Below are positions 5,125-8,414 of a DNA stretch of 15,992 nt, piece by piece; positions within the stretch are counted from its first letter, which is position 1; every line of letters begins with the position of its first letter. The position numbers and the translations under genes were made by a program. The stretch is from Candidatus Hodarchaeaceae archaeon (GTDB lineage Archaea; Hadarchaeota; Hadarchaeia; Hadarchaeales; Hadarchaeaceae). The stretch lies in the NCBI GenBank assembly GCA_030018135.1, contig JASEGJ010000024.1, positions 1-15,992 on the forward strand. The letters are read 5' to 3'. Under the pieces are notes generated by a model. The model searched no databases, was not told the origin of the DNA, and saw only the letters and a program-made list of their open reading frames with translations.

Positions 5125-5787
5125 CTAAAGGATTTCGCTCCTCTCCAGGTGCCCGCCGCAGTAGCTCTTCGAGTACTTCGCCACCGCCGCGAGTGCCGCC
5201 TCAACGCGCTCGCGACCTATGCCCGGAGCGTTCCAAAGCACCATGAGCGCGTTCGTCGTCTTGTTGGTCACCATCGCAGCTTTGGCGTCCCCCAAAGTGT
5301 ACGCCGACAACAGCTTTTCGTCGTCGCGGAGCACGATTTCGTTGAGCTTCGGGCTGAGCCTCCGCCCATCGATGAGTTCGAAGGGCTCGGTCTCCTTGGC
5401 GAGGGTTGTCACGGCCTGCCCCTTGAGCCTATCAGCATCGTAGACGCCGATGACGACCCAGTTCTCGACGGTCGCGAGCAAGCAGGAGTCGACGACGTTG
5501 TTGATCGCCGGAAAGCGATCGTCGAGCGCCCTGCGGAGCAGGTATTCCGGCGCCGGGCGATAGCTGGAGGGGTCAGCACCCATCGACTTGAAGAATGCTC
5601 TATATGTCTTAGCCTCAGGTATGTCCAGCACCAGAACCGCGCCGTAGCGCGCCTTGAGGTCGCTGAACACCTGGCGCTTCCGCTCGACCAGCCCCTCGAC
5701 GGTGGGCTCGACCGTTATCCCGCTGACCAAGGCATAAGCGGCGATGAAGTCCGGATATCTCTCTCGCACAGATGGATTCAACTTCAT
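5125..5787 (-). CDS. Free-standing B3/B4 domain protein (PheRS-beta editing-domain homolog)
   Basis: YRAFFKSMGADPSSYRPAPEYLLRR...FPAINNVVDSC...IGVYDADRLKG...EIVLRDD is the B3/4 signature. Confidence 0.9.
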   Translation of the reverse strand: MKLNPSVRERYPDFIAAYALVSGITVEPTVEGLVERKRQVFSDLKARYGAVLVLDIPEAKTYRAFFKSMGADPSSYRPAPEYLLRRALDDRFPAINNVVDSCLLATVENWVVIGVYDADRLKGQAVTTLAKETEPFELIDGRRLSPKLNEIVLRDDEKLLSAYTLGDAKAAMVTNKTTNALMVLWNAPGIGRERVEAALAAVAKYSKSYCGGHLERSEIL

Positions 5788-5887
5788 TCCTCAACCCCTG
5801 CTTATCTATGCTGGGTACCTTTTTAATCGTTCTGATTAACAGGCACTTTTTTACTCGGCACCGACGAAGTTTCCATTTAGCTGCTCG

Positions 5888-6478
5888 ATGACGGTCGAGA
5901 ACTTGAAAGTCCTGCCGCGATCGTTTTACGAGCGCGACACAGCGGAGGTCGCGCGGGCGTTGCTCGGGAAGATTTTGGTCAATCGAACGCCCGAGGGCAG
6001 GGCCAGCGGCAAGATCGTCGAGACCGAAGCCTACTATGGCGAAGGCGACCCCGCTTCTAGAGCATCGCGCAGGCGCACGCCACTCAACGAGATCATGTGG
6101 GGGCGCGGTGGGATGGCGTTCGTGTATATGGTGCATGCAAACTGGCTCTTCAACGTCGTCACCGAGCGCGAGGGCGTGCCCGGAGCCGTGCTCGTGCGCG
6201 CCCTAGAGCCGCTCGAGGGCATCGACCTCATGCGGAGGCGCAGGCGAATCTCGAACGAGCTGGAGCTGACCTCCGGCCCCGGAAAGCTGACGCGGGCGAT
6301 GGGGATCACGCGCAAGCATCACGGGCTCGATCTCACTGATGCCAAAAGCGAGCTGGCGATAGTCGAAGGCGAACCCCGGCGATTTTCGATAGCCAGCTCA
6401 CATAGGGTAGGGGTCAGCGCGGACCTGAAGCGGGAACTCAGGTTCTACATCGAGGGGAACCCGTTCGTCTCGAAGTAG
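5888..6478 (+). CDS. mpg: DNA-3-methyladenine glycosylase (AAG/MPG family)
   Basis: FYERDTAEVARALLGK, GKIVETEAY, AVLVRALEPLEG, LTSGPGKLTRAMGI, RVGVS and RFYIEGNPFVS. Confidence 0.96.
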   Translation: MTVENLKVLPRSFYERDTAEVARALLGKILVNRTPEGRASGKIVETEAYYGEGDPASRASRRRTPLNEIMWGRGGMAFVYMVHANWLFNVVTEREGVPGAVLVRALEPLEGIDLMRRRRRISNELELTSGPGKLTRAMGITRKHHGLDLTDAKSELAIVEGEPRRFSIASSHRVGVSADLKRELRFYIEGNPFVSK

Positions 6479-6486
6479 CTGGGCGG

Positions 6487-6936
6487 CTACCCGTAAGCCA
6501 CGTCTATGCCGAGGTCGCGGCGCAGCTTCTCGAGCTTGGCCCTCAGCTCGCCGTCGAGCCTCTGCTGCTTTTCTGAGAGGAACTCCCTGACGGGCGGGCG
6601 GGCTTCGAGATATTGTCCTAAACCAGCGGCGATGATGACGCTATCCCTCTGCGTTGGGTGCGGGGAGAGCATGCCGAATGGCATCGGCGACCCCTGCCTT
6701 ATCAGCTCGCGGATGCGGTCGTCCATCCGCTCAGCTGCGAGCTTCGCGCCGGCGCCGACGAGCTCGTAGGGGGTGCGGAACTCGCCCTTGACCTGCCAAA
6801 GCCCGACCTTGGGGCCGTAGAAGAAGAAGTCCTGGTTCCCCCACTCATCCCTGCTGCTGAGCATCCGCCAGCCGCGCGGGCTCCGCTTGTAGCGGCGGAG
6901 CATCTCCTCCATTACCTCCGCGAGTGACTTGACCAT
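6487..6936 (-). CDS. Hypothetical protein, 149 aa (probable host gene; the true start is MVKSLAEV)
   Basis: ATG at 6936 with a GGTGG RBS at 6941-6945. It is the C-terminal part of the 260-aa track ORF, whose N-terminal part belongs to the nucleotidyltransferase in the adjacent element. Confidence 0.75.
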   Translation of the reverse strand: MVKSLAEVMEEMLRRYKRSPRGWRMLSSRDEWGNQDFFFYGPKVGLWQVKGEFRTPYELVGAGAKLAAERMDDRIRELIRQGSPMPFGMLSPHPTQRDSVIIAAGLGQYLEARPPVREFLSEKQQRLDGELRAKLEKLRRDLGIDVAYG

Positions 6937-7014
6937 GTGACCACCGCTGATCCTTTCACACTTAATCTGTGAGTCCCTGCTAAAATGTGTTCTTAACAAT
7001 GCCCTATTTTGCTT

Positions 7015-7042
7015 TGGTGCGGCCGGCGGGACTTGAACCCAC
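7015..7042 (-). repeat. att-like duplicate of the tRNA-Gly 3' end (T arm, 3' acceptor strand and CCA)
   Basis: 7016-7040 GGTGCGGCCGGCGGGACTTGAACCC matches 8123-8147 GGTGCGGCCGGCGGGATTTGAACCC at 24/25 positions, in direct orientation. Confidence 0.93.
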
Positions 7043-7065
7043 ATGCTTGACATTTTTAACCAATT

Positions 7066-7619
7066 CAATTCTTTCAATTTTTCTTCAACGCCCGCTTTTC
7101 TCGCTCGACTTCGTGTGTACCTCCAATTTATTTCCTCAAAGTGGGTCGCAATCAGTGCCATGGCCTGATCGCAGTCCAGCTCCGAGCGCCAATGTACGCA
7201 TGCGTTCAGCCGGTCTACAATAAGGTCCTCGATCCCGATCACGAAGACCACGTACTCGCCTATCTTCACCGCTTCACGAGTTTCTCGTCGCCGGAGAGGG
7301 CGGAGGCCGGGATCTCTATCGCGGTGTCCGTCGGCTCAAAATACCAGTGGCGACCGATCCGTTTGAACCCGAACGCTTTGAGCAAATCCTTCAGTTCTTT
7401 CAAACCTGGACAGACCAGATCGTTGTCGAAGGTGCGATACTCCCCCAGCGTGTAGAATTCGACCGCACGCCCCCCGACGAGGATGGGGCGGAGTCGATGT
7501 CTCTCCATCCCTTTGGTGATGATGCCCAGCACCAACATGTTTTTCTTCAACGGGTCGGGGACATTCTTGGCGGCCTCGAGCTCCTTCCTGAGTCGTGCGA
7601 TTCCACCGGCGACGCTCAA
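7066..7619 (-). pseudogene. Pol-beta superfamily nucleotidyltransferase (DUF6036/AbiEii-like), ~185 aa, split by a 1-nt frameshift at ~7269; no stop codon before att
   Basis: The N-half (7266-7619) has PILVGGRAVEFYT..YRTFDNDLV (GG...DxD). The C-half (from 7269) has VIGIEDLIVDRL..CVHWRS..D...INWRY...RARKAGVEEKLKEL. Adding one G (CGG[G]TG) joins them as LVKRVKIG. The split may be a sequencing error. Confidence 0.8.
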
Positions 7620-8044
7620 ATTTGCACCTCATAAGTATTTGGGCCGATTTTCCTCACTTCACCGCGCTTCAACGCGGCCACCCATCTCCGCCGCCCGACT
7701 TCACAGAAGAACCGCCGCTCTTCGTCGCTCCTCGGCTTTCTGCGGATCGGTCTCGATCTCGGTTTGAGCGCGAGCCGTTTCCGCGAAAATTCCGTTTTTT
7801 TCTCCACGTAGGCCCCGTAGTCTATTTCCCTCTTAGCGAGGGCGATGAGCTTTTGAAAATAAGCCGGATTCACCCGCCTGAGCTCCTCCGCAAAGTCGAG
7901 CGTCCCCGCGATGCTCTTGGCCACTTGCCGCTCGGCGGCCGTGAACGTCTGGGCCCTTTTCCACCCCAGCTCCCGGGCTATTTCCACGTACCTTTTCCCG
8001 ACCGCCCGGAGATAAACCGCTCTCATCTGCTTGGTTGTTTTCAT
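7616..8044 (-). CDS. HTH DNA-binding protein (N-terminus similar to Tfx/sigma-70 region 4; basic C-terminal half); candidate antitoxin or regulator
   Basis: TTKQMRAVYLRAVGKRYVEIARELG..RAQ....E is an HTH pattern. Its stop overlaps the NTase start (TTGA), and a TATA box lies ~27 nt upstream. Confidence 0.75.
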   Translation of the reverse strand: MKTTKQMRAVYLRAVGKRYVEIARELGWKRAQTFTAAERQVAKSIAGTLDFAEELRRVNPAYFQKLIALAKREIDYGAYVEKKTEFSRKRLALKPRSRPIRRKPRSDEERRFFCEVGRRRWVAALKRGEVRKIGPNTYEVQI

Positions 8045-8047
8045 GAA

Positions 8048-8078
8048 TAAATATAATATAATATATTTACTTTAAAAA
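8048..8078 (-). promoter_or_regulatory. TATA box (TTTTTAAA, 8078-8071) and inverted-repeat operator TAAATATA-N6-TATATTTA (8048-8069)
   Basis: Perfect 8-bp inverted arms lie between the TATA box and the probably leaderless ATG at 8044. Confidence 0.65.
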
Positions 8079-8124
8079 ATGTGTCGTTTGATTCAAGTAC
8101 CGCCGACGGTTCGCCATAAGGAGG

Positions 8125-8223
8125 TGCGGCCGGCGGGATTTGAACCCGCGCCACGAGCGTGGCAGGCTCGAGTCCTTTTTGGAAGCGCCTTCCAACGCTT
8201 TAACCAAGCTAGACTACGGCCGC
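8125..8223 (-). tRNA. tRNA-Gly(GCC) with a 25-nt intron at position 20a/21 (intron 8177-8201)
   Basis: The spliced 74-nt sequence GCGGCCG TA GTCT AGCTTGGTT|A GGAC T CGAGC CTGCCAC GCTCG TGGC GCGGG TTCAAAT CCCGC CGGCCGC A folds as a full cloverleaf. The splice motif has a TTGG/CCAA helix, TTA and AAA bulges and an AAGCG/CGCTT intron stem. Confidence 0.96.
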
Positions 8224-8247: not shown

Positions 8248-8263
8248 TAATTAAACTTTTGCG
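8248..8263 (-). promoter_or_regulatory. BRE-TATA of the tRNA gene (CGCAAAAG-TTTAATTA)
   Basis: Consensus archaeal promoter ~25 nt upstream of tRNA nucleotide 1. Confidence 0.7.
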
Positions 8264-8414
8264 CTCTTCTGATGGATACAGTTGATGTCCAATAAAGTCC
8301 GATTAAATCGCTCAAAAACGAAAAAGAAGCAATTATAAGGCTATTTAAAATGTATCAACTACCAACTGCAGAAGAGCGACTTTTGTAATGCGTCCACTCC
8401 GCCGACTTCAACGC

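Follow-up and report, generated by a model that had tools for sequence, protein, structure and literature searches.

A two-gene islet at the 3' end of a tRNA-Gly gene

The stretch of DNA analysed here, the window, is the entire contig C16 (15,992 nt) of a genome assembly (G000; 1.1 Mb in 45 contigs, rated 93% complete) from an uncultured hot-spring archaeon of the Hadarchaeota. Between its tRNA-Gly(GCC) gene, the single tRNA that Rfam detects in the window, and a second copy of the 3' end of this gene lies a small islet (7041–8122) that encodes two proteins: a 142-residue protein with a helix-turn-helix (HTH)-like N-terminal part, called the partner below, and a nucleotidyltransferase (NTase) (Table 1). 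Their open reading frames (ORFs) overlap by 4 nt (TTGA), and the islet holds no further ORF of 60 or more codons except in overlapping frames. The ORF of the N-terminal NTase piece bears a GG-x14-DxD motif (LVGGRAVEFYTLGEYRTFDNDLV), and its continuation lies in another frame.

Table 1. Features of the islet and of the adjoining tRNA gene, in window coordinates
Feature	Position	Strand	Basis or remark
Left repeat copy	7016..7040		In place of the last few NTase codons; 24/25 identical to the right copy
NTase gene, assigned to the DUF6036 group, pseudogene	7004..7619	-	Intact orthologues in G004 and L101
117-residue ORF, N-terminal NTase piece	7266-7619	-	TTG start; ORF list
Partner gene, 142 residues	7616..8044	-	N-terminal HTH-like part and C-terminal basic module of ~70 residues
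Partner, C-terminal NTase-associated basic module (~residues 72-142)	7619-7831	-	Profile and alignment comparison
Partner, HTH-like part (~residues 1-65)	7850-8044	-	N-terminal
Conserved AT-rich upstream region with inverted repeat	8045..8082	-	Alignment of the cassette copies
Spacer between tRNA 3' end and conserved cassette, 40 nt	8083..8122		Not common to the other cassette copies; the G004 DNA match stops at 8082
Right repeat copy	8123..8147		25 nt; T-loop 3' half, T-stem 3' strand, acceptor 3' strand, discriminator and CC of the tRNA
tRNA-Gly(GCC), putative integration target	8125..8223	-	Rfam RF00005, 57.3 bits, E 2.5e-10; anticodon loop CUGCCAC

A second match to the repeat with up to three mismatches was found in 0 of 200 dinucleotide-preserving shuffles of the window. 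The left copy differs from the adjacent tRNA at one position and from two other tRNA-Gly-like 3' ends of the genome at two. Such a duplicated tRNA 3' end is a signature of site-specific integration. As in the islands of tRNA-targeting tyrosine integrases, a repeated tRNA 3' end encloses DNA of lower GC content beside an intact tRNA gene (54% in the islet against 61–62% in its flanks; genome, 55.5%). Unlike those islands, the islet measures only 1.08 kb, its short repeat of 25 nt overlaps the end of a cargo gene, and it is devoid of an integrase: the ORF list and the family scans gave no integrase-family match, no PF00589 match and no recombinase ORF within it. The initial annotation of this DNA had described a 25-bp tRNA-end repeat around two coupled genes and the absence of a recombinase, and both observations hold, with a start coordinate corrected by one. 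The islet is single-copy in the genome.

About 45 nt upstream of the partner ATG are common to the three cassette copies that we identified. They contain an inverted repeat, with 11-nt arms at 8048–8058 and 8059–8069 in the window and the form GTAAATAT-N6-ATATTTAC in the copies of genome G004 and metagenome contig L101. To judge from its letters, the AT-rich region of which it is part may be a TATA box or an operator. We read the islet as an accessory cassette in which one putative promoter serves two translationally coupled genes.

The partner is a fusion that includes a widespread small module

Profile matches to the HTH-like part are weak. Pfam HTH_23 (E 0.012, residues 5–34) is the only Pfam family matched by the partner at E ≤ 0.1, and the G004 orthologue (141 residues) matches Sigma70_r4_2 at E 0.084. 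The HTH recognised in the initial annotation stands as the N-terminal part of a fusion, not as a description of the whole protein.

The C-terminal half was compared with ORFs from 80 genome loci encoding enzyme homologues, upstream ORFs being taken first and six-frame ORFs afterwards. BLAST clusters the window partner with 91-residue upstream ORFs from Methanoperedens-type and Aenigmatarchaeota loci and from one Bacillota locus (BLASTP E 6e-5 between the window partner and the 91-residue type). The common part is the C-terminal half, with an hhalign probability of 95.2 and E 2.7e-8 for residues 70–141 against residues 21–91 of these AbrB-type partners. The N-terminal halves differ, and three of the 91-residue ORFs match MazE_antitoxin (AbrB/SpoVT type; E 4e-6 to 5e-4), the only type among the partner N-domains with a significant Pfam E-value. 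Beside enzyme paralogues of Hadarchaeota, the upstream partners carry the same module (hhalign probability 92.4, E 5.1e-7) behind a ribbon-helix-helix (RHH)-like N-domain (VAPB_antitox, E 0.009, sub-threshold) or a winged-HTH (wHTH)-like one (HTH_11, E 0.04).

A first hidden Markov model (HMM) of the module found it directly downstream of the enzyme gene in 34 of the 80 loci and upstream in 11. With a second HMM, built from 48 sequences, it was downstream in 51, upstream in 11, elsewhere in 2 and missing from 16, so that it adjoins the enzyme in 62/80 loci; in 12 of the 16 misses a divergent ORF of ~70 residues and like pattern, recognised by eye, overlaps the enzyme stop. As a stand-alone protein the module has ~70 residues, aligns end to end with residues 72–142 of the window partner and follows the pattern RRKPR..DEE..W..G.L..G.R.Y. 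The open frames of the 51 downstream partners reach back into the enzyme gene, by a median of 27 nt. In 11 loci the enzyme itself bears an N-terminal HTH_17 domain; ten of these keep the small partner downstream, and the eleventh contig stops 125 nt past the enzyme gene.

No Pfam family covers the module, the 33 members scanned giving one MazE match and two stray ones. At E ≤ 0.001 it has 149 homologues; among the 120 listed, all are 'hypothetical' or nameless except two JGI entries named 'MazEF antitoxin', a label that refers to the AbrB-type N-domain. HEPN domains were matched neither in the partner nor in these 33 family members, and the partner had no PADLOC match at E ≤ 1, in agreement with the earlier statement that it is neither HEPN nor AbiEi. 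By profile comparison, the C-terminal half of the partner is a full copy of an unnamed ~70-residue protein that is paired with this enzyme family across bacteria and archaea, and the HTH is one of several DNA-binding-type N-domains added in archaea. The partner had been taken for an atypical companion of the NTase. That view is superseded, and the co-occurrence that had been proposed as a check is found for the C-terminal module.

For the whole partner, AF2 gave a poor model (3 sequences; pLDDT 54.6), which was not used for a fold search. Atlas searches returned leads below 0.9 only, to HTH_23, Terminase_5 and Sigma70_r4_2 for the whole partner and to unnamed small Bacillota proteins for the stand-alone module.

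The enzyme probably belongs to a group apart from AbiEii and has a MenT-like predicted fold

The window NTase pieces match nothing significantly in Pfam, NCBIfam or PADLOC, and a word-index search of the N-terminal piece against longer proteins found none. The intact G004 orthologue, of 192 residues, has 81 homologues at E ≤ 0.01. Its own Pfam matches are sub-threshold (NTP_transf_5, E 0.058; DUF2204, E 0.076). In an alignment of 46 homologues that are 27–74% identical (alignment A1), DUF6036 is matched by 30, DUF2204 by 21 and NTP_transf_5 by 8 at E ≤ 0.001, and phmmer links the enzyme to PF19502-bearing members with E-values down to 1e-45. Because of this transitive homology we place the enzyme, on its sequence, in the DUF6036/DUF2204 group (PF19502, PF09970), set apart from DUF1814/AbiEii. 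The PADLOC AbiEii models match 12, 1 and 1 of the 46 members weakly (best E 2.8e-4) and leave the G004 enzyme unmatched.

Across alignment A1, G49 and D65 (G004 numbering) are invariant, and G50, D67 and E102 are conserved in at least 90% of the members. The family also has a conserved C-terminal helix motif, EDLIIDRLNA. The GG, DxD, E102 and helix positions are all present across the two reading-frame pieces of the window.

The AF2 model of the G004 enzyme is confident (pLDDT 96.6, pTM 0.90). Its leading Foldseek matches are to a nucleotidyltransferase-like protein of a fungus, to ANT(2'')-Ia and to MenT1 (E 2.6e-4 to 7e-4), with E 6e-4 for MenT1 (8an5_B) and 4e-4 to 7e-4 for ANT(2'')-Ia. In VIA-align the best match is MenT1 in complex with its antitoxin (8an5_A; Z 12.8, 163 residues aligned, rmsd 3.6), followed by 5uvd (12.3), ANT(2'')-Ia (11.9) and MenT3/TglT (6y5u; 11.5), and then by TM1012 (10.8), LnuA (10.1) and JHP933 (10.0); the alignments with MenT1 and MenT3 span 163–168 residues. 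The model thus suggests a bi-lobed, MenT-like enzyme, tied with 5uvd and ANT(2'')-Ia. The analogy to MenT toxins drawn in the initial annotation survives in that MenT1 and MenT3 are the nearest toxins in predicted fold, although ANT(2'')-Ia and the uncharacterised fungal protein are equally near.

Three cassette copies in three different contexts

In a DNA search of 41 genomes including G000, the cassette was found elsewhere only in G004, a genome of a different genus, where it is 77% identical over 7066–8082. The partner profile matched 2/66 genomes of the phylum and, among 1.84 billion cluster representatives, two proteins, one of them a weak match in an unrelated repeat protein. The enzyme family is present in 26/66 phylum genomes. 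A third copy of the cassette, with ~70% amino-acid identity, lies on metagenome contigs L100 and L101. The homology of all three copies stops a few codons before the natural stop of the enzyme, and purifying selection acts on both genes (dN/dS about 0.07–0.2 in pairs with unsaturated dS). The pair is accordingly, as had been supposed, a conserved accessory one and not part of the phylum core: it occurs in 2/66 genomes, at non-homologous sites and with constrained sequences.

Convergent genes for a CCA-adding enzyme and LigT enclose the G004 cassette; the interval also holds a 3' fragment resembling tRNA-Ser and a gene for a 184-residue membrane protein. The CCA-adding enzyme and LigT genes abut in G000 and, with ≤100 nt between matches, in at least 8 other genomes of the family, and are 0.4–4.2 kb apart in at least 9 further ones. 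Their spacing therefore marks a variable spot, and the arrangement in G004 is an insertion. On L100 and L101 the cassette is flanked by the genes for RtcB and archease; a tRNA lies at a distance of 440 nt, and there is neither a repeat nor an att remnant. All three Hadarchaeota copies hence adjoin either a tRNA gene or genes for enzymes that make or mend tRNA ends; chance and a functional tie cannot be told apart from three linked observations.

For the tRNA-Gly site itself, genomes G003 and G013 have the orthologous tRNA-Gly with its right flank and are cassette-free after the tRNA, and their left-flank genes are on other contigs. A precise empty site was not obtained in these nearest genera, the local synteny being broken.

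Two side observations concern these contexts. In G000, the gap between archease and RtcB (contig C11, ~68.2–72.7 kb; L102) contains ORFs of 191 and 118 residues that look LAGLIDADG-like by eye, and the RtcB gene has an intein-sized insert and its N-terminal part in a separate frame, through a frameshift or an assembly error. In G004, a sequence of ~75 nt (L005 2563–2640; copies L112–L117) has a beginning that resembles a complemented tRNA acceptor 3' end; many Hadarchaeota genomes contain it in several copies each, 80–90% identical, and it has no Rfam match. One G004 copy lies 86 nt upstream of the partner gene, which is the position of tRNA-Gly in the window.

The enzyme gene is broken in the window and intact in a sister population

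The NTase gene of the window bears two lesions, a 1-nt deletion at ~7269 and a 5-nt tandem duplication of CAATT (7061–7065 / 7066–7070), which substantiates the earlier hint that the gene would need to be 'repaired'. The current downstream frame is free of stops through the left repeat and into the neighbouring gene. Without the CAATT duplication the frame reads VKNVKHVGSSPAGRTKAK, crosses the left repeat and ends at the TAG at 7004–7006.

Contigs of X1 and X2, two hot-spring metagenome runs of one study, contain the islet at the same tRNA site. One of them (X2 record 8) joins the left flank to the islet (5500–8028), and another contig of this sister population covers 6999–8151, repeat to repeat. 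Sister and window sequences differ at 42/1153 nt of the islet and at 154/1529 and 104/934 nt of the flanks, that is, they are 96% identical in the islet and ~90% in the flanks. Since the islet is less diverged than its surroundings, we infer that it was exchanged or acquired later than the split of the lineages. The sister contigs have 5 nt fewer at 7061 and an extra G after 7269, exactly the two sites at which G004 and L101 disagree with the window. The enzyme gene is therefore intact in the sister population and twice broken in the window, where, with the partner intact, what remains would be an orphan antitoxin or regulator. No RNA sequencing run holding the window sequence was found among the matches listed.

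What the pair may do

We favour the reading that the pair is a toxin-antitoxin-like module, decayed in the window to an orphan partner, and we regard this reading as about as probable as its opposite. The cassette represents, in Hadarchaeota, a widespread and unnamed two-gene system made of an NTase of ~190 residues and a basic partner of ~70, with the partner extended here by an N-terminal HTH and encoded upstream. In such a module, the C-terminal part of the partner would bind and silence the enzyme, and its HTH would repress the common promoter through the conserved inverted repeat. Once freed, the enzyme would transfer nucleotides to a cellular target and arrest growth; by analogy with the MenT toxins, the target may be tRNA 3' ends, and the pair would act as a toxin-antitoxin or abortive defence module. 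A broken enzyme beside an intact and conserved partner fits the enzyme as the toxin. From the toxin-antitoxin or defence interpretation offered in the initial annotation we keep the conserved accessory pair at a duplicated tRNA end and the predicted fold nearest to MenT; the partner as an oddity is given up, and the enzyme is placed in DUF6036/DUF2204 and not in DUF1814/AbiEii.

Toxins of the NTase kind, such as MenT and AbiEii, block translation; the class is recent and has few members so far. Two reports describe MenT toxins as extending tRNA acceptor ends with nucleotides, and MenA1 as a 68-residue helical protein that blocks the MenT1 active site (PMC7450476, PMC10435456); motifs III and IV, exemplified by K189 and D211 of MenT3, are presented in one of them as specific to the DUF1814 C-terminus (PMC7450476). 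The present pair resembles MenAT1 in its two-lobed pol-beta-type enzyme of ~190 residues, with MenT1 as the best structural match and with GG...DxD and a third acidic residue (E102), and in the small protein of ~70 residues encoded alongside. It differs in that the enzyme is assigned to DUF6036/DUF2204 and not to DUF1814 (12/46 members match one PADLOC AbiEii model weakly), that the GG–DxD spacer has 14 residues, that the partner is of an unrelated, unnamed family and that most pairs are enzyme-first. AbiE systems likewise combine a partner having an N-terminal (w)HTH with an NTase, and members of the present family are weakly similar to AbiEii profiles; however, the partner has no AbiEi/COG5340 match, and the window and G004 proteins have no PADLOC match.

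Type II antitoxins combine interchangeable DNA-binding domains with a toxin-specific C-terminal part. The archaeal partners are similar in that a single C-terminal module is joined to HTH-, MazE/AbrB- (E down to 4e-6), RHH- or wHTH-like N-domains, and the two small, adjacent genes, overlapping by 4 nt here, are kept as a pair, as in type II systems. By contrast, the bacterial module is mostly alone, downstream and without a DNA-binding domain.

Several observations weigh against the toxin-antitoxin reading. The enzyme gene comes first in 51/80 loci, which makes the polarity ambiguous, and in 11 loci the HTH (HTH_17) is on the enzyme and not on the partner. The surroundings in bacteria are of a housekeeping kind: the 49 neighbours scanned include FtsW/RodA three times, GluRS and RNase III twice each, and SepSecS and HEPN once each, with no integrase or transposase, and the order FtsW–pair–GluRS recurs in related Chloroflexota. 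Viral contigs scanned with back-translated patterns hold no relative of the partner or of the enzyme, and only 6 of 72,556 plasmid records carry distant enzyme homologues (24–32% identity). The tRNA-related contexts of the Hadarchaeota copies could instead indicate a housekeeping role. The G004 enzyme matches no Pfam, NCBIfam or PADLOC model significantly, the enzyme-family profile matches no PDB sequence at E ≤ 1, and Pfam AbiEii is matched by none of the 46 aligned members at E ≤ 0.001. The structural rows are tied within ~1–2 Z units, and ANT(2'')-Ia and LnuA, which act on small molecules, are among them; fold alone therefore cannot separate a tRNA-directed toxin from a small-molecule transferase. 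Finally, both indels in the window could be assembly errors, a possibility raised by the lack of any run with the exact window sequence; real decay is the more natural reading of a 5-nt tandem duplication combined with a 1-nt deletion elsewhere.

A more specific version of the toxin-antitoxin reading is tentative. It would make the DUF6036-type NTase and the 'RRKPR' protein a new defence or toxin-antitoxin family, widespread in bacteria and archaea, that attacks tRNA 3' ends, the Hadarchaeota cassette having been captured repeatedly at tRNA and tRNA-repair loci and thereby tying damage to repair enzymes.

The pair might instead consist of a non-toxic enzyme and an adaptor, in other words a two-subunit activity that modifies or repairs RNA or tRNA 3' ends, or a regulatory pair, in which the partner tethers the enzyme to nucleic acid. 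This is the strongest of the functional alternatives, and still an unlikely one. The Hadarchaeota copies lie beside tRNA-Gly, the CCA-adding enzyme and LigT, or RtcB and archease; GluRS, RNase III and SepSecS occur among bacterial neighbours that lack mobile-element genes; gene order around the pair is locally conserved in bacteria, which suggests vertical descent; and in Atlas searches the C-terminal part of the partner has weak leads to winged-helix domains (FtsK_gamma and Mrr_N, TM below 0.5). A settled housekeeping role is nevertheless difficult to reconcile with the sporadic occurrence within the phylum (partner 2/66, enzyme family 26/66), with the non-homologous sites of the cassette, with the loss of the enzyme and retention of the partner in the window, and with the antitoxin-style swapping of N-terminal DNA-binding domains. 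The telling neighbours are also few and dependent on kinship, and tRNA genes are classic integration sites.

More doubtful is a reversed polarity of the kind seen in type VII HEPN-MNT systems, in which the basic protein would be harmful and the NTase would neutralise or regulate it by nucleotidylylation. MNT antitoxins are described as nucleotidyltransferases in PMC11586414. The enzyme-first order of the 51 loci agrees with this polarity, as do the HTH_17 domains on the enzyme, which in 10 of 11 loci has the partner downstream and so matches the usual upstream DNA-binding antitoxin. Yet a toxic partner left intact and conserved beside a broken enzyme, as in the window, should be deleterious. 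In archaea the DNA-binding domains are on the partner, which lies upstream; the two-lobed enzyme architecture is MenT/AbiEii-like; and the partner matches neither HEPN nor any other toxin family.

Least probable of all, and by some distance from the toxin-antitoxin reading, is a resistance-type NTase like ANT(2'')-Ia or Lnu that detoxifies a compound rather than acting on the cell's own RNA: its fold is tied with theirs (Z 11.9 for ANT(2'')-Ia, 10.1 for LnuA) and an adjacent HTH regulator would suit an inducible resistance gene, but a conserved, overlapping ~70-residue partner, usually without a DNA-binding domain, is atypical of resistance genes, the weak sequence similarity is to AbiEii models and not to ANT families, and no Pfam or NCBIfam resistance family was matched. 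ANT(2'')-Ia and LnuA are not known to be accompanied by a small, conserved partner gene.

Sequence comparison appears to separate the present pair from MenT/AbiEii in its enzyme family and to provide it with a previously unnamed partner family. A full-text literature search, made under the family names only, returned no paper for 'DUF6036' and one, unrelated, for 'DUF2204'. If the pair is a true toxin-antitoxin system, it represents a new family spanning many bacterial phyla and several archaeal lineages, and a clean case of one neutralising module joined to several DNA-binding domains. As the window copy has decayed, what makes the finding interesting is the family and its mobility and not the locus itself: an unnamed, widespread enzyme–partner pair, fold-related to MenT/AbiEii, and a recombinase-less cassette exchanged among Hadarchaeota.

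One of the plasmid-borne homologues is from a cultured bacterium, on a plasmid of Sulfurimonas paralvinellae GO25 (L131 2128–3031; HMM E 9e-32). An annotated wHTH gene, unmatched by the module HMM, overlaps the enzyme gene upstream, and a reverse-transcriptase-like gene lies just upstream. This homologue could be a tractable relative.

How the islet may have arrived

Junctions of a circular form and of an empty site were sought in assembled contigs only, which contained neither the 8122>7041 circle joint nor the 7015>8148 empty-site joint. Contigs of runs X3 and X4 cover both flanks and not the islet; no contig runs across, so they are uninformative about an empty site.

A plausible account, to which we assign somewhat less than an even chance, is that the islet is what remains at tRNA-Gly of a larger element with an integrase, reduced to a stump by internal deletion, and not a unit that moves on its own; it is compatible with any function of the pair. 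The absence of a recombinase from the islet agrees with it. In the window and in G004, moreover, the enzyme gene borders at its 3' end on a partial copy of a tRNA, which is the position of a distal att site, and the repeat stands in place of the last codons of the window gene; this fits a cargo module at the far end of a larger element since deleted. The G000 genome also contains a 2.5-kb integrase element between tRNA-like repeats, and an integrase gene beside two tRNAs. On the other side, the 1.1-kb form is also that of the sister population, at a divergence lower than that of the flanks, which suggests that this small form itself changed hands recently; the copy on L100 and L101 shows no att remnant, and no larger cassette-bearing element was found in the 66 phylum genomes, the metagenome contigs or the viral contigs. 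The minimal form in the sister population, at low divergence, and the repeat-free third copy fit an exchange of the small cassette itself. Exchange among Hadarchaeota lineages, at tRNA genes, of very small cassettes without a recombinase would be of interest to archaeal genomics.

The genome has three tyrosine-recombinase (PF00589) genes, on contigs C33, C22 and C1. The element on C1 (~16640–19200; L121 1144–3693) is delimited by a 36-nt direct repeat, 89% identical, tRNA T-arm-like and spaced by 2514. It encodes a 296-residue tyrosine integrase, whose N-terminus overlaps one repeat, and by eye a HEPN-like ORF of 158 residues and an RHH-like ORF of 99 residues. Rfam finds no tRNA there, and ARAGORN, with introns allowed, reports a tRNA-Ile with a 2555-nt 'intron'. 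This element was considered as a source of an integrase acting in trans; its repeat differs from that of the islet, so no link is shown. The C22 gene (10789–11286; L122) lies ~500 nt from two tRNAs (L122 3782–3873 and 3961–4045) and may mark another integrated element.

The tRNA-Gly gene and its surroundings

The tRNA was called Gly(GCC) because the Rfam alignment shows the anticodon loop CUGCCAC. In its default mode ARAGORN detected no tRNA in the window, and its Ser(cga) call for 8125–8223, obtained with introns allowed, is a mis-call, the Rfam alignment being preferred. The D-loop has 32 nt against 4 in the Rfam model, an insert of ~28 nt at a non-canonical intron position. By eye, the orthologue in G003 (L016 2408–2519) has an additional insert that follows the anticodon arm.

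Just upstream of the tRNA, the intergenic stretch 8262–8398 varies between populations: ~137–143 nt are replaced by 13–20 other letters in contigs of X1 and of X3 and X4. To the left of the islet, a gene for a 150-residue protein (6490–6939, minus strand) has no family match (best Pfam E 0.085). Its neighbour, in G003 and G013 too, is a methylpurine-DNA glycosylase gene, a conserved adjacency.

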